Of a stretch of DNA of 64,000 nt, positions 9,481-60,250 are shown piece by piece. The notes beneath the pieces were generated by a model. That model did no database searches. It was given only the letters and a program-made list of their open reading frames with translations, and was not told the origin of the DNA. The position numbers and the translations under genes are program-made. Source of the DNA: Dawidia cretensis (lineage in GTDB: Bacteria > Bacteroidota > Bacteroidia > Cytophagales > Cyclobacteriaceae); the NCBI RefSeq assembly GCF_018598175.1, contig NZ_JAHESE010000025.1, forward strand, positions 1 through 64,000. The letters are read 5' to 3'. Positions within the stretch are counted from its first letter, which is position 1. Each line of letters opens with the position of its first letter.

Positions 9481-9559
9481 TAAGGGCAATTAGCGCAATT
9501 TTTTCAAAAAAGCCCCGTATTGATTCAATTTGGCCTGCCTATTAACAAAAAGCACGACA

Positions 9560-29778: not shown

Positions 29779-29908
29779 TGCGAAAAAAGATAAACGTTAC
29801 ATCCGCGTAAATTGCTGCCGTTCGAATCGGCTGAACTGCGACCTCCACCGACTCCCGATTCATGCTTATTGATCCCCGGCTCAACAGAGACCCCCGATGA
29901 TCGACGTA

Positions 29909-31936: not shown

Positions 31937-31993
31937 AGATAGATTTTAAAGTTAGATTTTTGAGAAAGGTGTTTCTATATAGAGTAATGTCAA

Positions 31994-32665: not shown

Positions 32666-32696
32666 ACTTGATATCGGTAGGTTGAATGTTAAGATT

Positions 32697-33398
32697 TTAT
32701 GATATCCCTAATTTGTCTTTGATCGCCTGAAGGTCTTTCTCAATAGAGAATGAATCGTTTTTTAACAGGCTGTCCAATTCATCTTTCTTACTATTCTTAT
32801 CACGGGATATTTCACCGTAGGCTTTCGAGAGTGCTTCCTGATCTTCTACCTTTGATTTCATACGCTCGAGCATGCCAATTATTCCGTTGCTATCGACATG
32901 GGCCAGTTGTTTGTTTACTTGTACCGTTGCATTGCTAACGTTCAACCTGGTCTTCAACGTCCGCAACTCTTTTTCCCACTTCTCCATATTCTCCTTCAGA
33001 ATTTCGGCATTGCGCTGCATCTCCCTGGAAGATTGCTGCAACGCAACCGCTTGCAGCCCGAGCTCTTCTGACTCTACAGAATATCTTTTATAGAGCGACA
33101 ACGCTTCACGGGCAAGCTCTTCCGCCTTGCCCAGGTCTACCTGCCCGGACTGTGCTTTTTGCATGATCAATATAGCTTTTTCGGCATAACTTTTCGACTC
33201 CTGCTGGCGGTGAAGCTGATCATTTTCTGTGCGAATAGCCAGGGCCTTTACTTTGGCATAGGCCTCCGTTGCTTCTGCAAGATCTGTGCGCAGCTCACGA
33301 AGGCCCTGCTCCGTCATTTTAATGGGATCCTCCATTTTATCGACAGCGGCGTGAATTTCCGCCTGTCCTATTCTGAAAAGCCTTTTGAAAATATTCAT
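32697..33398 (-). CDS. pspA: PspA/IM30 (Vipp1) family protein
   Basis: N-terminal MNIFKRLFRIGQAEIHAAVDKMEDPIKM aligns with the E. coli PspA start [28 protein letters not shown]. All-helical coiled-coil composition. Confidence 0.8.
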   Translation of the reverse strand: MNIFKRLFRIGQAEIHAAVDKMEDPIKMTEQGLRELRTDLAEATEAYAKVKALAIRTENDQLHRQQESKSYAEKAILIMQKAQSGQVDLGKAEELAREALSLYKRYSVESEELGLQAVALQQSSREMQRNAEILKENMEKWEKELRTLKTRLNVSNATVQVNKQLAHVDSNGIIGMLERMKSKVEDQEALSKAYGEISRDKNSKKDELDSLLKNDSFSIEKDLQAIKDKLGIS

Positions 33399-43844: not shown

Positions 43845-44278
43845 CTGATTCAACGTCCCGCCTAAACACATCTCGCGAGCTCAGAAAAACGACCGAATCG
43901 TCCCCAAGCCCCCCGGGAATCTCTCCTGGAAGTGAAATCTTTCCTGGTTCTTTCACATGTAAAGGGATAATCGCGTCTCGAAGCCAAAAATAGACGTAAC
44001 ACATTGTCAATCAGCATATATAAGACATTAAACGGAAAAATCGTCATCCTTGCGTTACTTCTACTCTAAATCGCCGCAAAATCCAAAACAACAAATTGAC
44101 AATCAATTCATTAACAGGAAAAATAAGCACGCTATTAGGGACTTCGCATGACTTGTTGCACTATAGTGTGTACCGTGTCAAACGACCTCAACGACCCTCC
44201 GAACAAAGCCAGAACAAGAACGGAAATGATCCTTTTTTTTTATTTTGTCTCCAAAACCATCGAGTAAGGACCCAAAGA

Positions 44279-46843
44279 ATGACAGAGCAAAGAGGCGAAG
44301 GAAGTTTCTTTCGGAATTTTAAAGCTATGCTTTCACTGATAAAATCATACTGCTATATATTTCTGGTATTTGGTTTTATGCCACTGCAAGCCACCTCGCT
44401 GGGCGGCTTAAAGTTTCATGGCAGTGAACAATCGATCGATCAGCGCACGTCCTACAATGTATTTGGCGATAAGGCGGTCGAATTTTCAGACAACATGATC
44501 ATTGAATTTGATCTGTCACTGTACACCACCACCCGCATCGGATACATCATCCGGATCAAAAACAATGAAAGCAACCGAATCTATAACCTGTTCTACGACG
44601 CGCAGGGCGACAACCTCGTCTTCAAATTCAATGAAGAAGGCAAATATAGCCTGATCGTTGCCACCCTCAACGAAGAAGAATTGCTAAACCTCCCCTGGTT
44701 TAAAATGAAAATCGCATTCGACCTCAAAAGCGATTCCATCTACCTGACGATCCATAACCAAACGTTCAGCGCCGCCAACGAGCTGCCCGATACCTATCAT
44801 CCTACGATTCTCTTCGGCAAAAGCGATCACATTATTGATGTGCCGTCCTTTGCCATTAAAGACCTTTCCGTCGGCGATAAAGAACGGTACTTCTTTCCAC
44901 TAAAAGAAAGCAAAGGCGACGTGGTGCACGACGCCAATGGCAAAGTCTTTGGCCAGGTCTCTAACCCGGAATGGTTGATGAACGATGCCTACCACTGGCG
45001 CTATAAAACCGGCTTTAAATCAAAATCAGTCGCGGGCGCCAACTATAATCCGGAAGAGAAAGAAATATACTACTTCAACCGCGACTCCCTGTGGCTCTAC
45101 AACGTGCGCTCCGGAGAAACGAACATACAGGTCTTTGGAGAAAAATGCCCGGTGGAGCTGGTCCTGGGAACCAACTTTATCGACACGAAGAAAAACAGGC
45201 TATATTCCTACGAAACCTACTATGCGCCTCCCCGCGACAATTACACCGGCCCCACGGTAGCCAGCCTCGACCTGACTACCTACCAATGGACTGCCGAAGA
45301 TTCCGGCCAGCTCATTAGCCCACTCCACCATCACGGCGCGTACTTCGACTCTACTACCGCGCAATACACCATCTTCGGAGGCTTTGGCAAGATGCATTAC
45401 AGCAATACATTCTTTGCCTACGATCTGAACAAACAGGCGTGGGACACCCTGGACGCCTTTTCGGGAGACTTTTTATCGCCGCGTTATTTTTCCTCTGTCG
45501 GATACCTCAAAAAGAACAACTCCATTTACGTCTTTGGCGGCATGGGCAACGACTCCGGCGAACAGACTGTCGGAAGAAAATATTATTACGACCTCTATAA
45601 AATAGACCTGACCACCCGCCGCGTCTCCAGGCTTTGGGAGATTCCCTGGGAACAGGATAATGTCGTGCCGGTACGAGGCATGGTTGTACTCGACGACTCC
45701 TCCTTTTATACCCTCTGCTATCCTGAACATTTTTCTGAATCGTTCCTCAGGCTCTATCAATTCTCATTAAAAGACGGAAGCTATAAAATACTGGGCGACT
45801 CTATCCCGATATATTCTGACAAGATCACAACAAACGCCAACCTTTATTACGATGGCAGCCTGAACAACCTGTATGCGGTCGTCCAGGAATTTGACGACGA
45901 TATCTCTTCCGACCTGAAGATATATTCCCTGGCGTTCCCTCCTATTACGGCCGACGAGCTGGCCAGCTATTCACGCGAAAAAAATAATTACGCAGTCATT
46001 CTTGCGCTTGTGTCATTATTAGCCGTTGGCGGCGCCTATGTTCTCTTCAAAAAGCAGCAATCCAGGCTCAGCAATACGGAGGATGAAACCCAAAATCTAT
46101 ACATTGATACGGACAAGCCCGAACCGGTAACGACGCAGCCGAACGCTATTTATCTCTTTGGAGAATTCACCGTACGCGACCGAAACAATCGTGACATCAC
46201 CTATATGTTCAGCGCGCAACTGAAGCAGATCTTCTGTCTTATACTACAGTACACTATAACTGAAGACGGCATCGCGTCACAGCGACTCAGCAACATACTC
46301 TGGCCTGACAAGCCGGCGGATAAAGTAAAGAACTCCCGCGGCGTTTCCATCAATCACTTACGCAAAGCGCTAAGCGAATTGGATGGAATAGAGCTCCTCT
46401 ATGACAAAGGCTTTTTCAAAATAGAGCAAACCGGAAGCTTCTACTGCGACTACACGCGATGCATCGAAATCATCTCCGCCAACGAAGTGGACACACGCCG
46501 TGACGAGCTGATTGAAATCATTTCCCGTGGCAAGTTCCTGCAACTTTCCGATCACGCCTTATATGATTCCTTTAAAGAAGAAGTAGAAAAGAAACTGGAA
46601 CCGGTACTATCACTGGAAATGGAAAAGAGCTTCGACGCCGAGCTTTATCTCACAACGATCGCTTTTGCCGAGGCCATCACCAATATCGATCCGTTAAATG
46701 ACGCCGCGCTGACTTTCCAGATCAAAGCGATGCAACGATTAAAAATGAACGATGAAGCGCGAATCCGGTACCAGGCTTTTGTGATCGACTATAAAAAGGC
46801 GATGGGGAATGATTATCCCCACCCCTTTAAAAGCCTAACGTAA
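44279..46843 (+). CDS. One-component transmembrane transcriptional regulator: extracytoplasmic LamG-like + Kelch/beta-propeller sensor, single TM helix, cytoplasmic OmpR/SARP-type winged-helix DNA-binding domain
   Basis: Signal-like MLSLIKSYCYIFLVFGFMPLQA; LamG-like block; repeated Kelch-like Y..GG...W blades; TM helix AVILALVSLLAVGGAYVLF. C-terminal IYLFGEFTVRDRNNRDI...LKQIFCLILQY...LWPD matches trans_reg_C-type winged helices. A Bacteroidota -7 box TATTTTG at 44241 supports the 44279 start; the ORF track begins at 44096. Confidence 0.6.
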   Translation: MTEQRGEGSFFRNFKAMLSLIKSYCYIFLVFGFMPLQATSLGGLKFHGSEQSIDQRTSYNVFGDKAVEFSDNMIIEFDLSLYTTTRIGYIIRIKNNESNRIYNLFYDAQGDNLVFKFNEEGKYSLIVATLNEEELLNLPWFKMKIAFDLKSDSIYLTIHNQTFSAANELPDTYHPTILFGKSDHIIDVPSFAIKDLSVGDKERYFFPLKESKGDVVHDANGKVFGQVSNPEWLMNDAYHWRYKTGFKSKSVAGANYNPEEKEIYYFNRDSLWLYNVRSGETNIQVFGEKCPVELVLGTNFIDTKKNRLYSYETYYAPPRDNYTGPTVASLDLTTYQWTAEDSGQLISPLHHHGAYFDSTTAQYTIFGGFGKMHYSNTFFAYDLNKQAWDTLDAFSGDFLSPRYFSSVGYLKKNNSIYVFGGMGNDSGEQTVGRKYYYDLYKIDLTTRRVSRLWEIPWEQDNVVPVRGMVVLDDSSFYTLCYPEHFSESFLRLYQFSLKDGSYKILGDSIPIYSDKITTNANLYYDGSLNNLYAVVQEFDDDISSDLKIYSLAFPPITADELASYSREKNNYAVILALVSLLAVGGAYVLFKKQQSRLSNTEDETQNLYIDTDKPEPVTTQPNAIYLFGEFTVRDRNNRDITYMFSAQLKQIFCLILQYTITEDGIASQRLSNILWPDKPADKVKNSRGVSINHLRKALSELDGIELLYDKGFFKIEQTGSFYCDYTRCIEIISANEVDTRRDELIEIISRGKFLQLSDHALYDSFKEEVEKKLEPVLSLEMEKSFDAELYLTTIAFAEAITNIDPLNDAALTFQIKAMQRLKMNDEARIRYQAFVIDYKKAMGNDYPHPFKSLT

Positions 46844-46903
46844 ACTTACCCAAGCAAAACGCTAAACTTAACAACTTACCTAACCTAAACTTCTTATCTA
46901 AAA

Positions 46904-49108
46904 TCACCAACTCAGCTTCACGTGAACGCCGTCGGGATTGTTTTCAAAACTCAGGAAACAGGTCTTACTCGCAGCATCCCAGGATGTCTTTGATTCAACC
47001 AATTTTCCAGCGGCATCCGTTACCTTTATTTCCTTTGCCTTCGCCGGTAAAAGCACCCGCATCACATTGGTTGTGTTCAACGGGCTCATGGCAACAAAAG
47101 TATAGGAGCTCCTGGTAATCTTTTCGTCGTAAACACGTGCGGCTGCGGCCAGTACCTGCGGTGTCTTCGGATTCTTGATACTGCCTATATTAAACAAAAG
47201 TGCCTGCTCACCCGGGTTCACCTGCTTTTGATCTAAAACAGGGATTTCCGGATCGAACAGATCGATCAGCTTGCCTTTCAGGGTATACGGAGATTGATCG
47301 GCATTTTCATCTACCACGGAAATAATTTCGTAAGGCCCGCGCGTCAGGGCGAAGTGGTTTTTATACTTCAGCACGCCACCACCCGCTTGTGTTTCGTATA
47401 GCTTCTTAACCGTATTGACAAACGCGTCATCGCTGTTTGCCTTCAAAACAAACTCTTTCGGGTCGTTGCGCAGAATAACAACCTTTCCCTTTCCGTAGGT
47501 ATATTCTCCCGCCGGGAAAGGCTCTTTCAAACCGAGTGTTTTAAATAAATGCTCGGACGGCGCTTTGAAGGTATTCCCATCCGTATTCCACCACTCTTGT
47601 ACACGTTGAAAAGGATCCTCATCTCTGCCACTGTATAGCAAGACCCCACCATTCTTCACCCACTCGGCAATATGACCATGCGCATTCTTGTCCATGGGCT
47701 TCATATTGGAGTAAGACATGATCAGGATCTTGACGTCCTTCCAGGTTTGAGGGAACGACACATTCTCGATGTGTACCGTTTTAACCGGAACACCCCGCTT
47801 CAATAACGGAAGCGCCTGTCCATAAAAATTGGCCAGCTGTGGATCTTCATAGCCACTGTGTGTGGGAAACCGCTGAAACATCAGCGAGTTGCTCATCAGA
47901 ATACCGATACCTTGCGAACCGTTCACCTTGTTCTGCGACAACGGCATGTTGTTCAGGGTATTGATCATAACCTGCATTTGCGTAGAATAGAAACGAGGGA
48001 TCTGCTCCTTTTTATCGCTGTTTGCGCTGGTGCGATAAAGGCCCTGGTATATCCGGTCCGGCCAGGGCATTACTTCATAATCGGCAATCATCGGGTACAG
48101 CAGCTGTGCCGTAAATGTGGCCTGGTAATTTTTCTTGTAGTCCGCCCAGTCGCGTGGCCAGTCTTCAATCGGATCCGTCAGGAAAAACATCTTTCTGCCG
48201 GTAGGCGCCGTCATAGATTCCATGGAGCCATACTCCAGGAATGCCGTTTCAAATACACGCTCTTTTTCACGACCATTAAAATAATTGGGCTCGCGCGACG
48301 TGCCCGTCCATACCTGTGCAATGTAGCCGTCCACGCAGGGCAACGATGCCAGGCTCGCTTCGGGACTCACGATCATCCACTGCGAATAATTTACCAGCGA
48401 ATGGGTCGGCACGTAACAGCGCACATTCATGCCTTTGGTTTTACCATACTCCTTGGCGTAGGTGAAACATTCGTTCAACGCCCGGTAGTACAGGTGATAT
48501 TTTAACTTGTTAGACAAGTAGGTGTTTTCCGGCGACTCGTGCTGTGGTCTCCAGTCAAACCCGTAATATTCTTTCCATTCTTTTTTGAACGCAGTGCTGT
48601 AGCCCGATCGGGCCCAGAACTCCGGCTCCTCCAGGAAGATCGCGTCGATCCCCGCATCGATCACGCGCTTGATTACCGCCTCCTTCATATACTTGATGAA
48701 GTTCAGCGACGGCACGATGTACGGCACCAGCCGACCGTGCCACAGGGTATCGCCCTTTTGAGTAACCTGGCCTTCATCGAGATGCCATTTGCCATCCCAC
48801 TTGCCGGTAAAATAATCCTGGTATTCACCCCAGGCTATGCCGGTCATAAAATGTGTCTTGTAACCTTTGTCGCGCCAGCTTTGTACGCGCTCCTCAAAGG
48901 TCATGCTGCCTTTACCATGATGCTCCTTCACGCTGTAAACAATCGCAACATCGGCCCGCACGTCGGTCACGGGCTTCCAGGGATTGGAAGTTTGAAATAC
49001 GGTCTTTTCGCCGGGCAGACTGGCAGGCCGCTGCTCCGGTTGCTGAGACTGAGAAAACGCTTGAACAGAAAACGTTACGAAAAGATAAAATAGAATCGAC
49101 TTACGCAT
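46904..49108 (-). CDS. Secreted putative glycoside hydrolase, last gene of the PUL
   Basis: Signal peptide MRKSILFYLFVTFSVQAFSQ. 734 aa, aromatic-rich. No firm GH family could be assigned from sequence. Confidence 0.45.
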   Translation of the reverse strand: MRKSILFYLFVTFSVQAFSQSQQPEQRPASLPGEKTVFQTSNPWKPVTDVRADVAIVYSVKEHHGKGSMTFEERVQSWRDKGYKTHFMTGIAWGEYQDYFTGKWDGKWHLDEGQVTQKGDTLWHGRLVPYIVPSLNFIKYMKEAVIKRVIDAGIDAIFLEEPEFWARSGYSTAFKKEWKEYYGFDWRPQHESPENTYLSNKLKYHLYYRALNECFTYAKEYGKTKGMNVRCYVPTHSLVNYSQWMIVSPEASLASLPCVDGYIAQVWTGTSREPNYFNGREKERVFETAFLEYGSMESMTAPTGRKMFFLTDPIEDWPRDWADYKKNYQATFTAQLLYPMIADYEVMPWPDRIYQGLYRTSANSDKKEQIPRFYSTQMQVMINTLNNMPLSQNKVNGSQGIGILMSNSLMFQRFPTHSGYEDPQLANFYGQALPLLKRGVPVKTVHIENVSFPQTWKDVKILIMSYSNMKPMDKNAHGHIAEWVKNGGVLLYSGRDEDPFQRVQEWWNTDGNTFKAPSEHLFKTLGLKEPFPAGEYTYGKGKVVILRNDPKEFVLKANSDDAFVNTVKKLYETQAGGGVLKYKNHFALTRGPYEIISVVDENADQSPYTLKGKLIDLFDPEIPVLDQKQVNPGEQALLFNIGSIKNPKTPQVLAAAARVYDEKITRSSYTFVAMSPLNTTNVMRVLLPAKAKEIKVTDAAGKLVESKTSWDAASKTCFLSFENNPDGVHVKLSW

Positions 49109-49218
49109 GGGACTATATACTCTTTGTTAAAGGAAAGAAGGTCATGACTGTCGGCAAGCCGTCTAAACAGCTTACTATACCATGACCTTCTTATTATCAT
49201 TCCAGAGAGGGTCGAATC

Positions 49219-50034
49219 TTACGGAACCAGCACTTGCTTGGCTTCATTATAGTTCCATCTTCTCGTGCCGCTACCTTTGGGCGTATCATAGTTGATCCGC
49301 GCCGCAGCCCGAACAAAGACAGCCCTTCCCGAAGGAATCGCACCGACCGATTCAATGGTTACGATCTCGCCTAACAACCCGCTAAAAGCCGACCCTGCGT
49401 ATTCGATCTTGCTGGACCAACGCTCATCACGTGCACGATATCCTACGCTGGAAGAATAGCTGACGAATAGCTGAATATCCGTTACATCTTGAAAGTTCGA
49501 ATTATAACCGCCCATCGGCTCGATCTTCGCACGAAAATCATCTTCCGATACGCCACGCGTAACGCGCACTTGCGCTCTAACCTTACCGTTGATTATTTGA
49601 GGCTCTCCCACCCACTCTATGTTCAGGAAAGGCTGCACCTCAAAGGTTACCTTCGTCAGGTCGCTGATCTCCTTCGTTTGGGTTTCGTCGGCCAGTGGCG
49701 TGCCGCGGTCGTCCTCGCGAAGCAAGGGAATAAACGGACCATCGACACGGATGTTATACGTACCACCAAAGATCTTGGTATTTTGGAAGGTACCGTCGGG
49801 CTTGCAGAAGAAGTCAGGGTTTGGCTGTACGTTTTCGCCGTAGCTGAGCTCCAACAGGCGCACGCGAATACCTTCGCTTCCCTGGTCGGTCAGCACCGGC
49901 GCGCCGCTTTCGGCGTCAATCACTTCGCCTTGAATCGTGGCCGAAGGCTCGTCTTTGTTATCCAGCTCAAACAGCCCGCAGGAGCTGAGCGAGAGCAGTG
50001 CGAACGACACGATGTATAATGATATCTTTTTCAT
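49219..50034 (-). CDS. PUL-associated lipoprotein (DUF3823-like)
   Basis: Lipoprotein signal MKKISLYIVSFALLSLSSC. Directly downstream of SusD, as is typical for DUF3823 proteins. Confidence 0.45.
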   Translation of the reverse strand: MKKISLYIVSFALLSLSSCGLFELDNKDEPSATIQGEVIDAESGAPVLTDQGSEGIRVRLLELSYGENVQPNPDFFCKPDGTFQNTKIFGGTYNIRVDGPFIPLLREDDRGTPLADETQTKEISDLTKVTFEVQPFLNIEWVGEPQIINGKVRAQVRVTRGVSEDDFRAKIEPMGGYNSNFQDVTDIQLFVSYSSSVGYRARDERWSSKIEYAGSAFSGLLGEIVTIESVGAIPSGRAVFVRAAARINYDTPKGSGTRRWNYNEAKQVLVP

Positions 50035-50070
50035 GTTCGTAATTCTTAAGTATTGGCAATTCATGATTCC

Positions 50071-52131
50071 CTATCGGTTTGGTTGCTGGTCAATGACCGC
50101 ACTCTTCGATACCTCACCGCTCGGGATCGCAAAGTAATAATCCACGACGTTATACTCGAACGTCTTCTGGGCCACCCATTGGAAGTGAGCATCGAAGAAA
50201 TATTTGCCGGTTTGAGAAGAGAGGAACGGATACAAACCACGGAATTTATAGCGCGAGTTGTTGCTGAACAATTCTTTCTCCCGCTCTTCGCCCCAGAAAA
50301 GATCGCGCGCTTCGTAGTGATTCACTCTCCAACGACGCAGATCCCATTTGGCTTTGTGCTCCATCGCCAGTTCTTTGCGCCGTTCTTTCCGAACAATGTT
50401 ACGACCTTCGTCACTACCCGCGACACTTCCAACTAACGGATTCGCTCCCGCGCGCTCACGAATGGCAGCAATCGCCTCCGTAGCAGTTTGCAGCATGTCC
50501 GATCCGTCCGGCGAAGGCTCGCCCGCCAGGGTCAGCTCCACGCCGGCTTCTGCCGCGTTCAACAATACCTCTGCATAACGCATCAGGACGTAGGGTTGTG
50601 CTGACTTGCCTTCCGCCGGTACAAACGCAGGATCCGGATTCAGCCATTTGCGGCCCAGAAGACCAGTGAGACATCCTTCGCCGTTGTTGTAGAATGGGCC
50701 ATTCTCGCCGGCAGCCGTCGTGGGCACACCGCTGACGGGCACGATCTCCTGGTCGGTTAATTCCCGCGGGCTGAGGTACAGCGACTTGGGAGTTCCCGTG
50801 TATTGAGTCAGCTGTTGATAATGTCTTTCAGCATTGCCATAGGAATAATCCGTAAACAGGGGGTTGATCGGTGCAGCACCGGTATAGATTCCCGCGCGGA
50901 TTTCAATATCCCGGCTCTTAAACTGATCACCCGGAAAGATTACATAAGCACGCAGACGTGGCTCGGCATTTTTGAAGAAATCCATCGGCGTATCGTACAG
51001 CACATACGTTCCTTCGTTGTTCCTATCACCCGTAGTAACCTTGATCGTACCGTTGGGATAACGGGGAAAACCGTCAAACAGCTCGACAAAATCCAGTGTC
51101 GGACAGGTGCCCGATGCCAGCGGCGATTTGAAGATATACGGTGAGTTGTACGCGTCATAGGCGTGTGTAGAGATCGGATACGTATACTCCCGTGCATAGA
51201 TCGTCTCTGTGCTGCTCAGGTCCGAGAACATATCCACCATGTTCTGATATTGTGCTGCTTTGTCGTTGGCAGCCCACTTTTTCTTGTACAAAGAGTATTT
51301 GTTGCTTTTAATCACTTCCTGGGCGGCCAGATACGCTTCGCGGAAATACTTGCGCGAGGCCGATTGCCAGGTATTCGGATCAAAGCCCATAACCCGCACG
51401 TTGGTTTTCAAACCCATACCGGTAAGGCGGCCGGGAACAGTCTCATTGTACTTCGCCACGCTCCCCGCATACAACATCGCTTCCGACTTGAAAGCCAATG
51501 CCACATATTTATTAGAGTACCCTCTTTCAATGTCAGGGTTTGTCGTGCGCAGCAAAGAGATTGCCTGATCGTAGTCGGCAAGCACCTGGTCCCAGGTCTC
51601 TTCCTCCGTCGAACGCGCTATCTCCGGATTCTCATCATTCGGATATTTGATCACGCGTGTCACAAGGGGGACACCGCCGAAGCGGCGGGCCATCGCATAG
51701 AACGCGGTAGCGCGTGCGTAGTAGGCCTCTCCCAGATAATGATTGTACGTGATCTCCGGGAATGATCCCTTGTACTCCGGCAATGTCTCGATCAGGTAGT
51801 TCGCATCGCGGATCAACACAAAAGCATCTTTCCAGTACGCAGTCCGCTCACTGGTAAACGCGCGGCAGATACCATCGCGGTTCACAGCTTCACCGGTACC
51901 TTCGATACCCGAGGCGTTCAACCAGCCGTTGTACTCCATGCCCCACTCACCCATATACTTGAAGTCCTCGAACGGCATCCGGCTATACATCCGCGCCAGA
52001 TACACTTTCATACCCGACTCATTCGTCAGCAGGGTCTCGTCGCCTATCACATTTTTCGGCGGAATGTCCAGTTCCGTACATGCGGACACACAGAACGCTC
52101 CGATCAATAGTAATATATATATCCTATTCAT
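50071..52131 (-). CDS. susD: RagB/SusD-family nutrient-binding outer membrane lipoprotein
   Basis: Lipoprotein signal with Cys, TPR-like SusD architecture, and the SusC gene immediately upstream. Confidence 0.9.
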   Translation of the reverse strand: MNRIYILLLIGAFCVSACTELDIPPKNVIGDETLLTNESGMKVYLARMYSRMPFEDFKYMGEWGMEYNGWLNASGIEGTGEAVNRDGICRAFTSERTAYWKDAFVLIRDANYLIETLPEYKGSFPEITYNHYLGEAYYARATAFYAMARRFGGVPLVTRVIKYPNDENPEIARSTEEETWDQVLADYDQAISLLRTTNPDIERGYSNKYVALAFKSEAMLYAGSVAKYNETVPGRLTGMGLKTNVRVMGFDPNTWQSASRKYFREAYLAAQEVIKSNKYSLYKKKWAANDKAAQYQNMVDMFSDLSSTETIYAREYTYPISTHAYDAYNSPYIFKSPLASGTCPTLDFVELFDGFPRYPNGTIKVTTGDRNNEGTYVLYDTPMDFFKNAEPRLRAYVIFPGDQFKSRDIEIRAGIYTGAAPINPLFTDYSYGNAERHYQQLTQYTGTPKSLYLSPRELTDQEIVPVSGVPTTAAGENGPFYNNGEGCLTGLLGRKWLNPDPAFVPAEGKSAQPYVLMRYAEVLLNAAEAGVELTLAGEPSPDGSDMLQTATEAIAAIRERAGANPLVGSVAGSDEGRNIVRKERRKELAMEHKAKWDLRRWRVNHYEARDLFWGEEREKELFSNNSRYKFRGLYPFLSSQTGKYFFDAHFQWVAQKTFEYNVVDYYFAIPSGEVSKSAVIDQQPNR

Positions 52132-52166
52132 ATATAATTCAGATTATAACTCGTAAGTCTTTAACA

Positions 52167-55100
52167 TTAAAATTTGGCCGATAAACCTACCGTATACGTT
52201 TTGTTTAGCGGGTACAACCGTCCCAGGTCGCTATCCGGGTGCTCCGGATCGACAAACTTGACATCCGTGATCGTAAACACGTTGTAAGCGTTGGCAAACA
52301 CACGCACGTCCAGTGATGACAATATCCGCTTCGGCAATGTATAGCCGAGCTCAATGCTCTTCAGACGCAGGTAGGCGGTGCTCACACGGTTGAATTCCGA
52401 GTTATCACGCGGATAGTGCCCGGTGTAACCATAGTAGCCACTAGCCCATTCCGTGCTGGGATTATACGGATCAGCCTTCGGGTCAACCGGGTGCCAGCGA
52501 TCGAGGTATTGCTCCAGCGCACCACCACCATTGCTACCCCAGATGCGGTAAAGCGGTTCTTGATACGCCATCGATCCCATCGCTGTACCCTGGAAAAGGA
52601 AGTTCAAATCGAAGCTCTTGTAGTTAAAGTCAGCCCCTAAGCTGAAGTTCAACCAGGGTGTCTGGTCAAATGCAAACGGGTGTTGGTCCTGATCGTTGAT
52701 CTCGCCATCGCCATTCCAATCTTCGTATTTGTAGTCCCCGGGCAAAATGTCGCGGTCTTTGTAAATCGGGTAGTTCCAGATATCCTCCCAGTTCTGATAA
52801 CGTCCGGCAGACTCGAAGCCGAACTGTACACCTTGATAGCGGTTGTTCAGGTTGTCGTTACGCCATTTATCATACGAGTTTGCATAGGGCCCATTGGCGG
52901 CTCCAAACAGCCACTCTCTACGCGTAATGGTAGCAATAGCCCGTACCTTGTAGGAGAGGTCACCAATCTTGTTACGGTGATTGAGCTCCAGATCCAAACC
53001 GTATTGACGCTCTCTGTCCAGGTTTTCAACCGGCGCGTCGGTACCTACGATAGTAGGAATTTCGCTGGAAAGTTTCGTATGGAGTCCGGTCCGTTTACGT
53101 TGGAAATAATCTAACGAAAAACCGAACAAACCGTTCCAGCCTTCATAATCCACACCTACGTTGAAAGTTTGTGCTTCCCACCAGGTTAACTCACTATTAT
53201 TCACGATTACGTCTGCACCGTTAATAAACTGGCCACCGAACACATTGCCAGGAGCCCATTGATTATAATAGCCGTTCGCCGCGTTCGAGTTGGTGGACGG
53301 ATATTTATACCCCGGATACCAATCATATCCCAATGTACCGTCATTCGATGTTACACCGTAGCTTGTACGAAATTTCAACTGGTCAACAAACGACAGTGCC
53401 GAAATATTTTGGAAGAAGGGTTCTTCCGATATACGCCAGGCAACCGATCCTGAAGGGAAGAAACCCCACTGATTATCTTCGACAAATTTCGAAGAACCGT
53501 CATACCGGAACTGGAACTCGGCAATGTAGCGATCCTTGTGCGTAACGTTCACCCGTCCAAGCGCAGCGGCATTGGCAATCTCATAAAGGTCGCCGGTAGT
53601 AGAGCCCATCCCGCTGACCATGCCCGCGTCATTTACACCCGCGAGCAAATACGGCAGCCCAAAGGCAAGGTTCCGACGTGCGAAGAAATTGTCACCGGTT
53701 TTATTCTGGCTCTCCCAGCCTAAAAGGCCTACGAACTTCGTTTCACCGAATGTGCGGCTATAATTCACCAGGAATTGACCTAACCACTGCCGTCTCTCCG
53801 ACATATCACGCTGCAGCTGATTGGGCGAGCTCAGGTTATACAACTTGGAAACATACTCACCCGATAAAGGGTCCATCGCATACTGAAAGTACTCACGCCG
53901 ATAGGCCGTATTGTTGTTTTGACGGTAGTCATAGCTAAACATACCTTTCACAGACAAACCTTCCAGCGCGGGTGATACCGTGCCAAGATCAAAATTGAGC
54001 GATGCAGACGACTGAAAGTCCTTCTGTTGAAACTTCCGGTATCCCGAGATATCGGACGACATCATCGCCACCGTGTTTTGTTCCAGCGCAAGGCCTTCGT
54101 AGTTCAGCATGGTGCCTTCCGGATCTGCATACGCCGGAAATAAGACACCTTGCGCCCAATAGTTCCGGATTATATCCACCGAGCTCGCGTACGGTGTATT
54201 ACGTTCGTCGGATACTCCCGCCAGGTTGATATTCAGCGACAGGCCCTTGTAAAGCTCCGTGGTAATATTGGTGCGCAGGTTATACTTCTTGTAGTTCAGG
54301 TCACCCGATTTGAATATACCCTCCTGATAGAGATATCCTCCGCCAATATAATATTGCGTATTGTCGTTTCCACCGGTGATACTGAGATCGTGTTGCGTTT
54401 GAGGCGCCGTATTCGCGATGATCAGCTTGTTCCAGTCCGTCGTCGGACGCTGTCCCGTACGGAATGCTTCGAAATCAGCCTCATCGTAGATGATGTTGCC
54501 ACCGTTGACCTGATTCATGGCCTGCTCGTTGTAGAGCGTCATGGTTCCATAGGCATCTGCAAGCTTAGGCATATTCGACGGCTTCTGTATCGTAACAGAA
54601 CCGTTGTACGTAATAATCGGCTTTCCTTTTGTACCCTTTTTAGTGGTCACCAGCATCACGCCACTCGCCGCACGCACACCGTAGATAGCCGCCGACGCAT
54701 CTTTCAGCACCGAAATATCATCGATATCGCTTGGATTCAAGCGCTGAAAGTCTTCCATCGTGCGGGGCACACCGTCGATTACGACCAGTGGATCACCCTC
54801 CATACCACGGATGTCAAAGGTCGTGTTATAGGTACCTGGTTCAGCGCTTTTCTGCCAGATCCGCACACCCGCCACACGACCGGTAAGCATGTTCTGCGGG
54901 TTTTCATTTTTGGTCCGGCGCAGCTCGTCACCTTTAATCGCGGCCACAGAGCCGGTCAGGTTAACTTTTTGCTGTGTACCATACGCCACGACCACAACCT
55001 CGCCCAGTTGCGTAATATCAGAAACCAGGGCCACGCTGATGTTGGTTTGTGCACCCACCGTAACCTCCTGCTGGACATAGCCGATAAACGACAGGACCAG

Positions 55101-55406
55101 CACGTCTTCGCCGCTCGCAACATTGATCACAAACTTGCCATCGGCATCCGTGGTGGTACCACGGTTTGTGCCTTTGACAACCACGCTCACACCCGGTAAG
55201 CCTGTTCCGTCATCCGACGACGTGATGGTACCCGTTACGGTAATGCCCTGAAACGGCAAAGTCGTTGTCACGGCGGTTGCATGTATATTTTTTACGTCGT
55301 TTGCTTCCGATGCAAAAACAGAAGCAACAAGAACGCACTGAGCGGCTATTCCGAAGGCGGAATACTTCAGTAGTTTCTTTGATAATGATTTGTAGTTATT
55401 CTGCAT
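52167..55406 (-). CDS. susC: SusC/RagA-family TonB-dependent outer membrane transporter
   Basis: Carboxypeptidase-regulatory-like N-terminal domain, TonB plug and 22-strand barrel signatures, and the terminal ...GLSAKF. Confidence 0.9.
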   Translation of the reverse strand: MQNNYKSLSKKLLKYSAFGIAAQCVLVASVFASEANDVKNIHATAVTTTLPFQGITVTGTITSSDDGTGLPGVSVVVKGTNRGTTTDADGKFVINVASGEDVLVLSFIGYVQQEVTVGAQTNISVALVSDITQLGEVVVVAYGTQQKVNLTGSVAAIKGDELRRTKNENPQNMLTGRVAGVRIWQKSAEPGTYNTTFDIRGMEGDPLVVIDGVPRTMEDFQRLNPSDIDDISVLKDASAAIYGVRAASGVMLVTTKKGTKGKPIITYNGSVTIQKPSNMPKLADAYGTMTLYNEQAMNQVNGGNIIYDEADFEAFRTGQRPTTDWNKLIIANTAPQTQHDLSITGGNDNTQYYIGGGYLYQEGIFKSGDLNYKKYNLRTNITTELYKGLSLNINLAGVSDERNTPYASSVDIIRNYWAQGVLFPAYADPEGTMLNYEGLALEQNTVAMMSSDISGYRKFQQKDFQSSASLNFDLGTVSPALEGLSVKGMFSYDYRQNNNTAYRREYFQYAMDPLSGEYVSKLYNLSSPNQLQRDMSERRQWLGQFLVNYSRTFGETKFVGLLGWESQNKTGDNFFARRNLAFGLPYLLAGVNDAGMVSGMGSTTGDLYEIANAAALGRVNVTHKDRYIAEFQFRYDGSSKFVEDNQWGFFPSGSVAWRISEEPFFQNISALSFVDQLKFRTSYGVTSNDGTLGYDWYPGYKYPSTNSNAANGYYNQWAPGNVFGGQFINGADVIVNNSELTWWEAQTFNVGVDYEGWNGLFGFSLDYFQRKRTGLHTKLSSEIPTIVGTDAPVENLDRERQYGLDLELNHRNKIGDLSYKVRAIATITRREWLFGAANGPYANSYDKWRNDNLNNRYQGVQFGFESAGRYQNWEDIWNYPIYKDRDILPGDYKYEDWNGDGEINDQDQHPFAFDQTPWLNFSLGADFNYKSFDLNFLFQGTAMGSMAYQEPLYRIWGSNGGGALEQYLDRWHPVDPKADPYNPSTEWASGYYGYTGHYPRDNSEFNRVSTAYLRLKSIELGYTLPKRILSSLDVRVFANAYNVFTITDVKFVDPEHPDSDLGRLYPLNKTYTVGLSAKF

Positions 55407-55424
55407 ATGCTAAAGATCTTAAAT

Positions 55425-56876
55425 TCATTTTTCCAGTTGATAGCGTGCTAATACAGCGTATTCAGCGGCGTAGGTAAAATTGAACATACCCTCCGCCTGG
55501 TTTTTGCTGTTTTCACGATTCCATCCAACCAGCAAATTGGTGGGCAGATACCCCTTGTAAAAGAAGTTGTCGTAACCGTGGTCCAGGTTCTTTTGGAAAG
55601 ACTCGGCATACGTACCGGACGTGGCATAGTGCGCTGCAGTCTCTACGAAAGCGCGCATCAGCACACCGTTAAACCACGTGCTAAAACCACCGATATCATA
55701 GGTATAATAGCCGGTCTTCGTCTGGTCCAGTTTGGCAAAGTACTTGAAGCTGTCGTCCGACAATTTCTTGGCATCTTCCAGGTATGCATTATCGGTAGTT
55801 ACCCGGTACAAATCGGCTGCGCCGGAAAGCATCGAGCCGCTGTTGTACGAGTACGCAGGGCCTACGCGATCCCTGCACGTAATGCCTTTGCGATAGGTTC
55901 CGCCACCGACAGACTCTGTCTCCGGTCCGCCCGGTGTGCATCCACCCAGAAAATCATCGTATACACCTTCGCCGCGTACCAACGCTTTCTTCTGCCAGGC
56001 ATATATCTTCTTGGCAAAATCCAGGTAATAGTCGCTCTTCGTTACCTCTTCGGTCAGGCGTGTTTGTTTGTCGGTAGCGTCGATGTACCGGTGGGTGATC
56101 ACGTCGGCTTTGCCTTTGTATACCTCGTGCAGCCATACCAGCGGGCTGATCATGGGGCCGTTGCTGCAAGCGTGCTTGGTGACGTAACCCGGTCCCCAGG
56201 TAATACCACCAATCTCCGCGCCATTGGCATCCAGGGTACAATCCCAGCCATCCAGTACATACTCTGTCAAATACTCCGCTTTGTCCAGGTATTTCTGCTC
56301 GCCTGTTAGTTTATAGGCTTCGATCATTTCGCGTACGAACCACATCTGGTCATCATACACGTTGTGAATACCATCTACCTGGGCAGAGCCCTTGTCGCCG
56401 CCGCGGTCCACGCCGTACACAGACCAACTTTTGGTTTGCGTGTAAGACGTCAACTGAAACGTTCCCTTGTAGAAATCCGCATTCTCGTATAAATTAGAAA
56501 GCAGGTCCTTGTACTTGCTAAAGTTGGCATCGTACAGCGCGGAATTTCCATCGTCTTTCTGCGCTTTAAGGCCATGAAGAATAGCGTTCACCGCTTCGAT
56601 GCCGGCGGTATACATCCACACACTGCCCTTTTCATCTGAACGAGCGCTGGTATACGGATTGTAGAAACGGGCCATTGCCATGCCGTCGCCCGTAAAGTGG
56701 GCGGCGACCGTAGCGTCGGTAAGTTCCATCGCACGCTTCAGGTTTTGCTCCGGCACGTTTACATCGCCGTCCGGGTCTGTATCCGGTCCGTCATCAGATG
56801 ATGTATCACTACACGCGGCGATAATCAACAGCAATACCAGGCAGCAGGTAGTAAAAAAATTACGAAATAGTATCAT
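55425..56876 (-). CDS. Six-hairpin glycosidase lipoprotein, probably GH76 (alpha-1,6-mannanase family)
   Basis: Lipoprotein signal ...IIAACSD. A consecutive-aspartate motif NVYDDQMWF resembles the GH76 catalytic DD pair, on an (alpha/alpha)6-type composition. Confidence 0.5.
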   Translation of the reverse strand: MILFRNFFTTCCLVLLLIIAACSDTSSDDGPDTDPDGDVNVPEQNLKRAMELTDATVAAHFTGDGMAMARFYNPYTSARSDEKGSVWMYTAGIEAVNAILHGLKAQKDDGNSALYDANFSKYKDLLSNLYENADFYKGTFQLTSYTQTKSWSVYGVDRGGDKGSAQVDGIHNVYDDQMWFVREMIEAYKLTGEQKYLDKAEYLTEYVLDGWDCTLDANGAEIGGITWGPGYVTKHACSNGPMISPLVWLHEVYKGKADVITHRYIDATDKQTRLTEEVTKSDYYLDFAKKIYAWQKKALVRGEGVYDDFLGGCTPGGPETESVGGGTYRKGITCRDRVGPAYSYNSGSMLSGAADLYRVTTDNAYLEDAKKLSDDSFKYFAKLDQTKTGYYTYDIGGFSTWFNGVLMRAFVETAAHYATSGTYAESFQKNLDHGYDNFFYKGYLPTNLLVGWNRENSKNQAEGMFNFTYAAEYAVLARYQLEK

Positions 56877-56896
56877 GATATAATCCCCTCTTTCTT

Positions 56897-58717
56897 TTAT
56901 TTTATTTCGATCTGGCGGATAGACAATTTATTCTCGCCAGAGTTTTCAACAACATTGTATACCCCCAAAACAAGGGTTACATCTTCGCCATTGAATTGTG
57001 ACAAGTCGTATTCGAATTTGGCATAATCAACCAGTGCGTTATCACCGGCTTCATGTTTGAATTTCCAAAGTCCATCGGCCTCAGCGCTGGCGTCATCGCC
57101 ATTCACAGCAAACGAGGAAGGTTCAAGATGTGTAACCGTACCGTTGTTTTGTACTGCGCTGACCTTAAAGTATGTATAGCTGCCGTCGTAGGTGCGTGCA
57201 TGCAACGTCAGTAAATTACTACCGGAGGCGATGGAAAACTTTGCATAGAGGTGAGCGTCCGGAACCACCGTGCTCGTGGTATTGTCGCTAACGGTCTTGA
57301 TGACATAAACTTGTCCTCTAAACGGTTCGGCATCCTTCCTGACCGGGACCAGAGACCAGTTTGCTCCCAGGTGATTTGTCTCGCGCCATTCGCGGTATCC
57401 AGCAATATAATGATCACGGTTCTGATCAGCAGTAGCGGTGCGTCCTGTAAAAACCTTTTTCGTTTGGGGCATCGTAGAGCGAACAGCCTCTAGAGGTAAC
57501 TTCCATCCAGGAACAACATCAGCACCCGGCAGCCATTCCCAGCTAACGAGCTTGCGGGTAGAAAAACGAATCGCCCGAAGAACAAATTGTTTCCAATAAT
57601 CGCCCGTAGCCGCACGATAAGTTCCAATGGCAATAACGACCTCTTTCCCTACATAAGCACTCAGGTCGAAGTCGAAGTCCTGATAGGCTTCCGAATTCAA
57701 TCCTTTGGTTTCACCGATTTTGACAGCGACAGGTTCTGCGGCTGAAAGGTCGATCACTTGTACACCCCACACAGTTGGAGCCGCATCCGAGGCACTGTGC
57801 GTACGTACGCGCAACGACATGATTTTATTATCGTCGGTAATCATTTTGCTACCGAATACAAACGAGTCGAATACATCCAAATCAGCCGGATTCGCGCGCT
57901 CCGCGTCACTGTTGCGGATTTGTAGTGTCGTACCCTCGTTCTGCTCTTCCCAGGCACCGCGGAAGTCAAGCGTTCCCATGTAGTTGGTCGACCAGTCCCA
58001 GTGTGGGTAAGAGTCGCCGTTACGGCCGCCACGATATTCGTTGTAGTACCATTTGTCAGCCGATCTCAAATCGTCAGCCGTCAACCCGCGCAACACATCT
58101 CTCCCGCCCATCCGGATGTCAGCTGTAGCGATGCCGGTAGCAACATCAAAGTCCGCTTTCGCAACGGCCTTTGTCACGGATACATAATTTGCTTTGCTGT
58201 AGGTTACCGTGTAATTGTCGGCAATCAGGTTCTCGATGGTGAATTTGCCATCACTACCGCTGGTAGCTGTACCGGCAACACCTACCGTAACCGTTACTCC
58301 TTCCAGCGGAGCATCGTTATTACGGGCATCGGTAATCGTACCGGTAATCACCTTCGACGCGTCCAGCATCATCACGTCCACGGTCGCCCGTTTGTTTTCG
58401 TCAAAGTCGCCGGCATCAACGCTCACGCTGGTGCGCAACAGTTTCGTCTTGGAGAACGTCACAGCATGCAGTTTCATCGACACGCCGTCTACGCTGAATT
58501 TTCCGTTGGCATCGGTCGTCAGGACGATATCCTCCTCCTTAATGCCGGAAATGGTCACCGTAACGTCGGGAATGGTTTGCCCATTCTCACCCGTAACGGT
58601 GCCGGAAATGGTCCCTAAAGAGGTTGTTGGGGCATCGTCATCCTTACAGGAGCCGAACGACACAGCGAATGCCCCCAGCAAAACAACGTACCGTAAGAAT
58701 TGTAAAGCTTTACTCAT
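56897..58717 (-). CDS. Surface glycan-binding lipoprotein (SGBP-like), first gene of the PUL
   Basis: Lipoprotein signal ...SFGSCKDD. Two carboxypeptidase-regulatory-like Ig domains (TGTITD...GVTVTVG...GKFTIENL). PUL leader position. Confidence 0.5.
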   Translation of the reverse strand: MSKALQFLRYVVLLGAFAVSFGSCKDDDAPTTSLGTISGTVTGENGQTIPDVTVTISGIKEEDIVLTTDANGKFSVDGVSMKLHAVTFSKTKLLRTSVSVDAGDFDENKRATVDVMMLDASKVITGTITDARNNDAPLEGVTVTVGVAGTATSGSDGKFTIENLIADNYTVTYSKANYVSVTKAVAKADFDVATGIATADIRMGGRDVLRGLTADDLRSADKWYYNEYRGGRNGDSYPHWDWSTNYMGTLDFRGAWEEQNEGTTLQIRNSDAERANPADLDVFDSFVFGSKMITDDNKIMSLRVRTHSASDAAPTVWGVQVIDLSAAEPVAVKIGETKGLNSEAYQDFDFDLSAYVGKEVVIAIGTYRAATGDYWKQFVLRAIRFSTRKLVSWEWLPGADVVPGWKLPLEAVRSTMPQTKKVFTGRTATADQNRDHYIAGYREWRETNHLGANWSLVPVRKDAEPFRGQVYVIKTVSDNTTSTVVPDAHLYAKFSIASGSNLLTLHARTYDGSYTYFKVSAVQNNGTVTHLEPSSFAVNGDDASAEADGLWKFKHEAGDNALVDYAKFEYDLSQFNGEDVTLVLGVYNVVENSGENKLSIRQIEIK

Positions 58718-58781
58718 TGGTTTTTAGGTTTAGATGAAAAACTGGTCCAGTAGCTTTTTAAAAGTGTTAGACTTTGCCAAT

Positions 58782-59144
58782 TATCGATTGCGGGATGGTT
58801 GCTATCGATTGCAAATTGTACCGAGTTTACCAGTCAGGTGGTTAAAGAATGGGTTAAAACCGGGTTAATGGAGGGAAAAAAATCGTTAATCTGCGATTTT
58901 GGCCACTTTTGCTGTTTGCGGTTGAAGAAATATTTTTGAGCCTAACAAGGGAAATTAAGCGCCGTACACAGCGGCGCACACAGAGACAGATATCTTCAGC
59001 TAAACCGATTTATGAAGCGTTCAGCAAACGTTTGGGAAGGCGCTCCCGACAAGCGTGTTGGAGCAAGGTTATTAACCCGGTTTTCAACGCCAGCTAATAC
59101 GCTGAAAATCAAAAAGTAAAACCACATTAACCCGTAGTTAATGG
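58782..59144. promoter_or_regulatory. PUL upstream region dense in repeats: TATCGATTGC x2 (21-bp spacing), GGTTAA x3 at 11-13 bp spacing, an inverted 12-mer pair AACCGGGTTAAT / ATTAACCCGGTT, and the palindrome ATTAAC-N6-GTTAAT
   Basis: Read directly from the sequence. TATCGATTGC at 58782 and 58803. GGTTAA at 58839, 58852 and 58863. 12-mers at 58858-58869 and 59071-59082. Palindrome at 59127-59144. Confidence 0.4.
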
Positions 59145-59176
59145 CCATTTTAAGGCCTTCCAAAGAATATGGATGT

Positions 59177-60250
59177 TTACGTGACATCCGTTGCGGAAAT
59201 GTATGCGGGGCGCGTACGGATGACGGCGGGCACCGTCTCGGGCACATTGACGAACTTGCAGATCACATCGCCACCGGCATTCTTCATGATCTTTTGTACA
59301 ACCCCCAAATCCAGGGTCTTCAACGTCCGAGTTAGTGCGGAATCTTCGTCAGCCACCGTAATAGCGGAATGCACCTGATATCTTGCCAGCAAGGCCTCGA
59401 TTAACCGCTGCAGATCGGCTTCGCATCCAGCAGCATGATAGATTCCTTCCAACGCCAGAAACGCGTACCGATGTCCCATGACGCGATTGAGCGATGGCAA
59501 ATGTGACACAAGGGATAACAGGAATTTGCCATAACGCCCCGGCAACGAGCGAACCTGCCAGCAGTCCGGTGTTGCCTGAACACCCGCTACGACCTCCCCT
59601 TTCGAGTTGCGTAGCACAAAGTACTGCCCGTCACGAAACAAGTTTTCGGTACTGAACATCGTATAATCGGCGTAGAAGCACGCCAGCCGTTGCTTCATAT
59701 CAGCCAACGCATCGTGCCCCTGAAGCGATTCGGGCCGTGCATCGCTTCGGAGGGTAAATCGTGTGAAAATAAAAGTGGAATAACGCCGGACCTGCTCGAA
59801 ACCAAACGCACGACATAACCGGACCGACCGCACGTTCCGGGGGTCCACGTACGCATAATGAAAATAGCCGCCGCTCGACCGCGCCCAGGTGTCTGTCTCC
59901 AGCAGCATGGCAATCTCCTGCCGCAAAGCACTCGTACGCTGTCCAACCCTATGCGCACGCGGCATGCGCTTAAACTGATCCAGGAAAGCAAAATACCGGA
60001 TGTAAAATGCCGGGGTCCAATCACCCGCCGCCGAAACTCTCCGGAAACAAAAACAGCACGTGCCCACCGTCTGGTCGCCGCGCTTCAGGCTGATGAAATA
60101 AGGATCGGCAATCCCCTCGATCTTTCGCGCTACCTGCGTATGCTGATAACACATACTCAATCCCGGGGTACCGATAACGTTGTAGGCCAGGATCTGCCGC
60201 ACCTGGGCGGATGGCGAGGGATGTATAGTTAAATACCTAAAATGTGTCAT
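59177..60250 (-). CDS. Hypothetical protein, possibly acyl-CoA N-acyltransferase-like
   Basis: 357-aa ORF with a good start context and no firm motif. Confidence 0.4.
   Translation of the reverse strand: MTHFRYLTIHPSPSAQVRQILAYNVIGTPGLSMCYQHTQVARKIEGIADPYFISLKRGDQTVGTCCFCFRRVSAAGDWTPAFYIRYFAFLDQFKRMPRAHRVGQRTSALRQEIAMLLETDTWARSSGGYFHYAYVDPRNVRSVRLCRAFGFEQVRRYSTFIFTRFTLRSDARPESLQGHDALADMKQRLACFYADYTMFSTENLFRDGQYFVLRNSKGEVVAGVQATPDCWQVRSLPGRYGKFLLSLVSHLPSLNRVMGHRYAFLALEGIYHAAGCEADLQRLIEALLARYQVHSAITVADEDSALTRTLKTLDLGVVQKIMKNAGGDVICKFVNVPETVPAVIRTRPAYISATDVT

Follow-up and report, generated by a model that had tools for sequence, protein, structure and literature searches.

The intergenic region upstream of a polysaccharide utilization locus (PUL) in the bacterium Dawidia cretensis contains an array of TTAACC direct repeats which is almost certainly a functional, conserved promoter or operator. 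We analyzed the array within a window of 64,000 nucleotides (64 kb), i.e. positions 1 to 64,000 of contig NZ_JAHESE010000025.1; all coordinates refer to this window unless a locus label (L001 and so on) is given. A transmembrane protein linked to the PUL, with a Kelch-type sensor and a C-terminal module of predicted SARP fold, is the candidate reader, and we consider it likely that this Kelch-SARP protein recognizes the array and activates transcription of the PUL.

A conserved repeat array in the PUL promoter

The array lies in an intergenic stretch of 460 nt, bounded by the ATG of the first PUL gene at 58717 (− strand) and, on the other side, by the stop codon, at 59177, of a gene for a protein of 357 amino acids (aa). 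A preliminary description of this DNA had listed four sequence features of the region, all of which are present. The first, three GGTTAA half-sites at a spacing of 11-13 bp some 125-150 bp upstream of the first PUL gene, corresponds to GGTTAA at 58840-45, 58852-57 and 58863-68 of the + strand, spaced by 12 and 11 nt and positioned 123-151 nt upstream of the ATG. Read in the direction of the PUL (− strand), the array is composed of GATTAAC, T7 and TTAACCC-N4-TTAACCC-N5-TTAACC, with TTAA cores 21, 11 and 12 nt apart:

58885-58891, − strand: R0, GATTAAC in inverted orientation, its TTAA core 21 nt from that of R1
58876-58882, − strand: T7 tract between R0 and R1 (consensus aaTTTTTt), a conserved block of alignment columns
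58862-58868, − strand: R1, direct repeat TTAACCC, 11 nt upstream of R2 and within the 14-nt inverted-repeat arm 58856-58869
58851-58857, − strand: R2, direct repeat TTAACCC, 12 nt upstream of R3, from the repeat search and the alignment of 44 arrays
58840-58845, − strand: R3, promoter-proximal direct repeat TTAACC, invariant in 44 non-redundant orthologous arrays

The repeats are concentrated in this region. Four of the six GGGTTAA copies of the whole window sit inside the 460 bp, and a window scan for TTAACCCNNNNTTAACC with at most two mismatches gives seven matches, five of them inside the promoter intergenic region, where 1.33 are expected; none of 100 shuffled sequences reaches seven.

For the comparison across Bacteroidota, a genome scan with the GH76-like protein of the PUL yielded 80 loci. 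The PUL or its regulator is recognizable in about 66 of these, and the 14 GH76 loci without the PUL served as the control set. A two-repeat pattern detects the array ahead of the first operon gene, in the orientation of the PUL, in 58 of the 66 PUL loci; none of the 14 controls has it. This is the decisive evidence that the repeats are more than a product of chance, and the objection raised in the preliminary description, namely that the motif might be missing from orthologous promoters, does not hold. Among the eight array-negative PUL loci, three lie on contigs that stop short of the promoter and two have a GTAACCC variant. Array-bearing loci come from dozens of genera and belong to the orders Cytophagales, Sphingobacteriales, Marinilabiliales and Bacteroidales, and the array occupies the equivalent position in Chryseosolibacter, Ohtaekwangia, Algoriphagus, Echinicola, Cesiribacter, Maribellus, Draconibacterium, Dysgonomonas, Proteiniphilum, Paludibacter and Sphingobacterium. 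A loose pattern of three TAAC units has 49 matches in 1.58 Mb (both strands), of which about 46 are located at the orthologous promoter.

The 44 non-redundant arrays give the consensus agatTaa..aaTTTTTt.t....atTAACCCtgttTTAACCcataatTTAACCa...c.c.t.tA..TTtg. The consensus of R0 is GATTAAY; Sphingobacterium and Draconibacterium, which possess degenerate versions of the array, have GGTTAAT instead. Counted from R1, GGTTAA shows enrichment at positions −22 and −37.

Promoter geometry

Bacteroidetes promoters of the housekeeping sigma factor consist of a −33 element TTTG, a spacer of about 19 nt and a −7 box TAnnTTTG. In the orthologue consensus, R3 ends 10 nt ahead of a −7 box TAnnTTTG, and 31 of the 44 arrays match at least five of its six defined positions. 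A −33 TTTG is absent from the expected place in 42 of the 44 arrays, where the R2-R3 spacer and R3 are found instead. The window and the loci L001 and L002 deviate from this scheme: their best TTTG-containing box, ACAATTTG, lies 20 nt from R3, with a weaker one, TAAACTCG, at 10 nt. An exact TAnnTTTG does not occur on the PUL strand in the window, which leaves two candidates, the second of them conserved in L001 and L002:

58822-58829, − strand: candidate −7 box TAAACTCG, 10 nt after R3 (the consensus distance), matching 4/6 TAnnTTTG positions
58812-58819, − strand: alternative −7 box ACAATTTG, 20 nt after R3, one helical turn farther downstream, matching 5/6 positions

The candidate regulator

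44327-46843, + strand: candidate regulator of 838 aa, characterized by Pfam, an AlphaFold2 model and a homologue search

Pfam matches on the whole regulator are to Kelch alone. According to the model, the protein consists of a signal peptide, a β-sandwich and a six-bladed Kelch propeller (sensor, residues 42-536), one transmembrane helix (553-574, ~45983-46048), a disordered linker and the SARP module (606-838, 46139-46840). The full-length model is of moderate quality, with a predicted local distance difference test score (pLDDT) of 69.6. The C-terminal 234 aa, modelled by AlphaFold2 with an alignment of 33 homologues, reach a pLDDT of 94.1. This module begins with strands at residues 3-13, followed by helices at 26-42, 47-54 and 60-78 and a hairpin at 84-97, the arrangement of an OmpR-type winged helix; the helices that directly follow, across residues 104-233, are predicted to form an all-helical BTAD bundle.

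At the sequence level the module is hardly recognizable. There is no Pfam match to Trans_reg_C (PF00486) or BTAD (PF03704) even at E = 10, only weak TPR-like profile matches, and neither NCBIfam nor a sequence search of the PDB recognizes it. In a Foldseek search against the PDB, the only significant matches are to the SARP AfsR (8hvr_I, E 8e-6; 8k60) and to EmbR (2fez, 2ff4), with about 245 aligned columns, 17-19% identity, a TM score of ~0.6 and a probability of 1.00. The AfsR structures 8hvr and 8k60 are transcription activation complexes. In the predicted recognition helix, K64, N65, V69, N72 and R75 are invariant across homologues down to 36% identity.

The family is large: at least 1786 homologues are found in a database clustered at 90%, some of them bearing JGI names, based on COGs, that read 'SARP family' activator. 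At 50% identity (E ≤ 1e-30) they form 941 clusters, almost all with proteins of 810-880 aa and a C-terminal module. Pfam detects no receiver domain (Response_reg) in the regulator, and a partner kinase was not found. Because of its modelled signal peptide, Kelch sensor, single transmembrane helix and SARP module, the regulator looks like a one-component sensor with a periplasmic sensor and a cytoplasmic DNA-binding module.

The preliminary description had suspected a winged helix at the C-terminus of this protein and had seen no other such domain nearby. The model and the Foldseek matches agree with the former, adding the BTAD, and no other Trans_reg_C protein occurs among the window's open reading frames of at least 200 aa. 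Its proposal of an OmpR/PhoB-type operator and reader stands as far as the conserved array, the linked regulator and the OmpR-type fold are concerned; the reader itself is SARP-like and not a response regulator. Overall, that interpretation is supported and sharpened, with binding as a putative step.

Linkage, possible additional targets and paralogues

The regulator gene is linked to the PUL in every lineage for which enough contig is available, though in different arrangements. It is convergent at the 3' end of the PUL in the window, L001, L002, Algoriphagus and Echinicola. In Maribellus, Draconibacterium, Sphingobacterium, Dysgonomonas and Proteiniphilum it is divergent and located just upstream, and the intergenic region common to both contains the array. 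In Ohtaekwangia-like genomes and Pseudochryseolinea it lies beyond two extra genes (GH92 and a DUF4964/DUF5127 protein).

Some genomes seem to contain more than one target. A second array in Algoriphagus (L039:5072-5099 and L054:4751-4778), composed of GATTAG, a T-tract, three TTAACC, N10 and TATTTT, is located ahead of two genes, one GMC-oxidoreductase-like (581 aa) and one for a subunit of 235 aa with an apparent N-terminal export signal. This operon is located just upstream of the PUL, which makes a regulon of two operons in this genus. In Dysgonomonas, an extra array precedes a GH92 gene that is placed ahead of the PUL.

Three diverged Kelch-SARP paralogues also adjoin TTAACC(C) arrays, whereas no array is present in the DNA examined at the paralogue loci L083-L085:

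L082, array 9470-9600, − strand: paralogue beside a GxGYxYP/SusC/SusD PUL
L086, ~60-170, − strand: paralogue with adjoining TTAACC repeats
L164, ~10380-10410, − strand: paralogue, upstream of NapC/FGE-sulfatase, GFO/IDH/MocA and GT2 genes

The preliminary description had suggested a search for such arrays ahead of other PULs or of the regulator's own gene: the PUL adjacent to the L082 paralogue does have one, and the regulator's own promoter does not. Autoregulation was rejected, as no array precedes the regulator gene in the window. Since diverged paralogues lie beside TTAACC arrays, the core motif seems to be common to the family. A wider generalization, that TTAACC arrays are the common operator of a phylum-wide family of membrane-bound Kelch-SARP activators and replace the −33 element at PULs and other operons, is a tentative one, and on present evidence we would rather doubt it than rely on it.

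We observed no co-variation between motif and regulator. TTAACC is retained by the ~40% identical Sphingobacterium regulators and by the paralogues, hence the comparison is uninformative; with the recognition-helix residues and the TTAACC core both invariant, co-variation offers no test.

Proposed mechanism

We propose that the region is an activator-dependent promoter of a conserved GH76-type PUL. The periplasmic β-sandwich and the Kelch propeller would sense a glycan product. The geometry is that of SARP promoters, transposed to the −33/−7 grammar, and we therefore suggest that the cytoplasmic SARP modules bind R1-R3 head-to-tail, with one protomer per repeat; the invariant recognition-helix residues fit the invariant TTAACC core. 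The three direct repeats would lie on one face of the helix and end about one turn (in the window possibly two turns) upstream of the −7 box. Bound modules could then recruit RNA polymerase, like AfsR-type SARPs at afs boxes, and substitute for the missing −33 contact, while R0 and the T-tract may provide either a bend or one more contact, the fourth, in opposite orientation. To a second factor we would assign the GCWATCGATWGC palindromes that follow the −7 box.

Several observations weigh against this model. The −7 box of the window is ambiguous, with two weak candidates 10 nt apart, and the position of the repeats over the −33 region might suit repression as well. Pfam and NCBIfam fail on the supposed DNA-binding module. 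The regulator gene of the window is convergent and at a distance of 12 kb, and there is no array upstream of it. Furthermore, a very similar triple TTAACC also occurs beside classical OmpR two-component systems of other Bacteroidota, so the motif alone does not name the reader, and one motif common to the paralogues leaves target specificity without explanation. As paralogues appear to use the same core motif and have an invariant recognition helix, tight cis-linkage of the membrane-tethered regulator, and not sequence discrimination, might set the targets; R0, the T-tract and the spacer bases might provide fine-tuning.

Arrays beside two-component systems

A metagenome scan with the array pattern returned at least 120 stretches, largely 11-bp tandem satellites. 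Only three of 80 loci belong to the Kelch-SARP family. About a dozen loci constitute a second class with TTAACCCTTCRTTAACCyTTCATTAACC, i.e. with 11/11 spacing:

L091, L102, L124, L131, L132, L149, L151, L155, L156, L162, L167: second-class loci

Here the array is placed between a gene for an outer-membrane protein of ~790 aa (OMP_b-brl_3/CarboxypepD_reg) and a divergent pair of genes encoding a HisKA kinase and a Response_reg/Trans_reg_C protein. An OmpR-type two-component system of Bacteroidota seems to have its box here. Hence the TTAACC motif alone is insufficient to identify its reader; at the same time, the finding supports the view that TTAACC repeats at one-turn spacing are winged-helix sites in general.

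The best surviving alternative to the Kelch-SARP protein follows from these loci: the PUL array could be an OmpR-family operator whose reader is a classical response regulator with its gene in another part of the genome. Some OmpR-type response regulator of Bacteroidota apparently uses TTAACC repeats, given the second-class arrays beside HisKA and Response_reg/Trans_reg_C pairs. Yet the two classes of array differ in spacing (11/11 versus 11/12) and in the distance to the −7 box, and the second class lacks GATTAAY and the T-tract. Trans_reg_C is absent from the window's reading frames of at least 200 aa, and the orthologous loci show no PUL-linked gene with this domain either; it is the Kelch-SARP gene that consistently accompanies the PUL. 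Nor is there detectable sequence similarity between the winged helices of the response regulators and those of the Kelch-SARP proteins. We therefore regard this explanation as unlikely.

Activation or repression

Apart from the array, the intergenic region contains distal GGGTTAAT sites, with cores at 59071-78 and 59126-33, 207 and 262 nt upstream:

59071-59084, + strand: D1, ATTAACCC(GGTTTT), on the PUL strand GGGTTAAT; inverted relative to R1-R3; second arm of the 14-nt repeat
59126-59133, + strand: D2, ATTAACCC, the conserved half of an ATTAAC-N5-GTTAAT palindrome

Their cores are conserved in the window, L001 and L002 (Parachryseolinea, Dawidia), while the flanks diverge. Because comparable sites are rare in other lineages, they look like lineage-specific auxiliary sites. 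The palindrome that includes D2 had been described with a spacer of N6; it is present at 59126-42, the spacer being N5. Even the closest relatives do not preserve its second half (59137-42), and the palindrome as such is not a conserved unit.

These sites bear on the second alternative, in which the Kelch-SARP protein does bind and acts as a repressor or dual regulator, with looping via the inverted and distal sites. The overlap of the repeats with the −33 region would suit a repressor, as would the inverted sites R0, D1 and D2, the latter two conserved in three genomes. Yet a −33 element missing from 42 of 44 promoters is typical of activator dependence, and the BTAD together with the distance from the repeats to the −7 box matches SARP activation complexes. 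The distal sites, moreover, are missing from most lineages. Repression or dual control seems improbable to us, slightly more so than a response regulator encoded elsewhere, and we favor activation by the Kelch-SARP protein.

Other elements of the intergenic region

The preliminary description also included two TATCGATTGC copies 21 bp apart, which are found at 58782-91 and 58803-12. They are an element separate from the TTAACC array:

58801-58814, − strand: B1, TTGCAATCGATAGC, including the near-palindrome GCWATCGATWGC; the second TATCGATTGC copy
58781-58792, − strand: B2, CGCAATCGATAA, a second, partial B copy 21 nt downstream; the first TATCGATTGC copy

The Ohtaekwangia/Chryseolinea clade and Echinicola retain the near-palindrome GCWATCGATWGC at a position downstream of the −7 box. 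The element resembles the operator of a dimeric LacI-type helix-turn-helix protein (a palindrome of 14-16 bp with central CG), a similarity of appearance only; among the window's reading frames scanned, no LacI-family gene was found that could pair with the TGCAATCGAT palindrome. Outside this region the window shows no enrichment of the TATCGATTGC/B motif.

The + strand, opposite to that of the PUL, has a Bacteroidetes promoter of canonical form, TTTG-N19-TATTTTTG, at 58908-58938, between R0 and the distal sites. The block recurs in L001, and in L002 with a single mismatch. This promoter aims at the 3' end of the 357-aa gene and has no conserved reading frame downstream, only one of 35 aa (59012-59119); it could drive an antisense or small RNA. 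A further block, CCCAAACGTTTGCTGAA on the PUL strand (59022-59040), is conserved in the window, L001 and L002 between both groups of sites, and shares AACGTTTGC with the −7-box region of Ohtaekwangia-type promoters. A GC-rich hairpin at 58959-77 was rejected as a terminator, since not even the closest relatives retain it.

That the conserved sequence works as RNA, be it a leader, a riboswitch or a small RNA, is very unlikely. The length of the intergenic region (460 nt) and the antisense promoter at 58908-38 would agree with such a function. Against it, no Rfam match exists in 58600-59300, the hairpin lacks conservation, and the repeats lie upstream of a conserved −7 box with a periodicity that is helical rather than one of base-pairing.

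The last feature of the preliminary description, an inverted pair of 12-mers, is indeed a perfect inversion, with a length of 14 nt and not 12: the arms, AAAACCGGGTTAAT at 58856-69 and its counterpart at 59071-84, are separated by 201 nt. Such an arrangement of perfect 14-mers could in principle mark the ends of a miniature transposable element, a reading which is effectively refuted, as the pair is single, without other copies in the window, its arms coincide with conserved regulator-type sites, its interior is syntenic in L001 and L002, and the proximal arm occurs without the distal one in dozens of genera; chance or low-complexity repeats, whose shuffled equivalents never reach the observed TTAACCCNNNNTTAACC count, are just as hard to maintain, and we give this pair of explanations the least credence of all.

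The PUL and its surroundings

46904-58717, − strand: PUL of six genes, assigned by Pfam, with synteny kept across more than 60 loci

The genes encode a CarboxypepD_reg lipoprotein-like protein of 606 aa, for which an exact-sequence look-up gave no entry, the GH76-like protein, SusC, SusD and two unassigned proteins of 281 and 734 aa. The GH76-like protein is 94% identical to its counterpart in Parachryseolinea silvisoli (Cytophagales), a relative of the source of the window. The locus is of GH76 type, with α-mannan as its probable substrate. The 281-aa and 734-aa proteins (46904-50064, − strand) have no Pfam or NCBIfam match and are conserved at 65-90% identity phylum-wide inside the same PUL. 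The 357-aa gene upstream of the promoter (59177-60250, − strand) likewise has no match in Pfam or NCBIfam. The region of the regulator gene (44000-47000) is more AT-rich (GC fraction 0.44-0.49) than the PUL (~0.50-0.53). Elsewhere in the window, 24937-33398 (− strand) encodes a 1613-aa DUF3686/DUF7902/AAA ATPase, followed by unassigned proteins of 675 and 223 aa and by PspA/IM30; these genes are unrelated to the PUL.

Comparison with known systems

The types of PUL regulator that are understood are few: SusR, hybrid two-component systems, extracytoplasmic function (ECF) sigma/anti-sigma pairs and some GntR/LacI repressors. As we propose for the candidate regulator, SusR, the hybrid systems and the ECF pairs are PUL-linked inner-membrane sensors of glycan breakdown products, and they switch on the adjacent SusC/SusD operon; their outputs are of AraC type, LuxR type or a sigma factor, in contrast to the SARP module of the regulator.

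Among other regulators, OmpR/PhoB response regulators possess the same type of winged helix and recognize 11-nt direct repeats that overlap the upstream promoter element, as in the pho box. The ArcA box is GTTAA-N6-GTTAA. These proteins have a receiver domain and a partner kinase, whereas the candidate regulator has neither and would receive its input through its own periplasmic domain. In this respect it resembles ToxR and CadC, which are single polypeptides with a periplasmic sensor, one transmembrane helix and an OmpR-type winged helix at the membrane. Yet in ToxR/CadC the winged helix is N-terminal and the sensor C-terminal; the regulator shows the reverse order and has in addition a BTAD and a Kelch sensor.

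The closest relationship is to the SARPs (AfsR with its afs box, ActII-ORF4, DnrI) and to EmbR, which share with the candidate regulator a fold in which an all-helical BTAD comes after an OmpR-type winged helix. SARPs are mainly actinomycete proteins that act at promoters with poor upstream elements; in their target promoters, the spacing of direct repeats is 11 or 22 bp, and 8 bp separate the 3' repeat from the −10 element (PMC10936776). The array follows this rule, with spacings of 21, 11 and 12 nt and R3 10 nt before the −7 box in the orthologue consensus. Direct repeats one or two turns apart, a 3' repeat about 8-10 nt from the −10 or −7 box and a poor or absent upstream element are thus common to both. 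There are also clear differences. Sequence identity is only 17-19%, and the regulator has no Pfam match to Trans_reg_C or BTAD. SARPs are soluble, whereas the regulator is a membrane protein that combines a periplasmic Kelch sensor with the module as its C-terminal part. SARPs target antibiotic clusters; the putative target here is a PUL, in a phylum, Bacteroidota, with −33/−7 promoters. Finally, the array has an inverted site and a T-tract in addition to its three direct repeats.

A class 'SARP-OmpR' is listed among the predicted PUL regulators (PMC7641319). In the literature searched, we found no description of the operator, promoter geometry, sensor or mechanism of these SARP-OmpR regulators. 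What would be new here is a SARP-type logic combined with a membrane tether, a Kelch sensor, a different promoter grammar and a target in glycan utilization. A class of PUL switches becomes testable, now that a precise, conserved operator, its placement with respect to the −7 box and a candidate reader backed by structure are available, and SARP-type activation, so far mainly actinomycete, would be extended to a membrane-tethered form in a different promoter grammar. The array may also serve as a simple signature for the prediction of GH76/GH92 regulons (of the fungal α-mannan type) in soil, marine and gut Bacteroidota.

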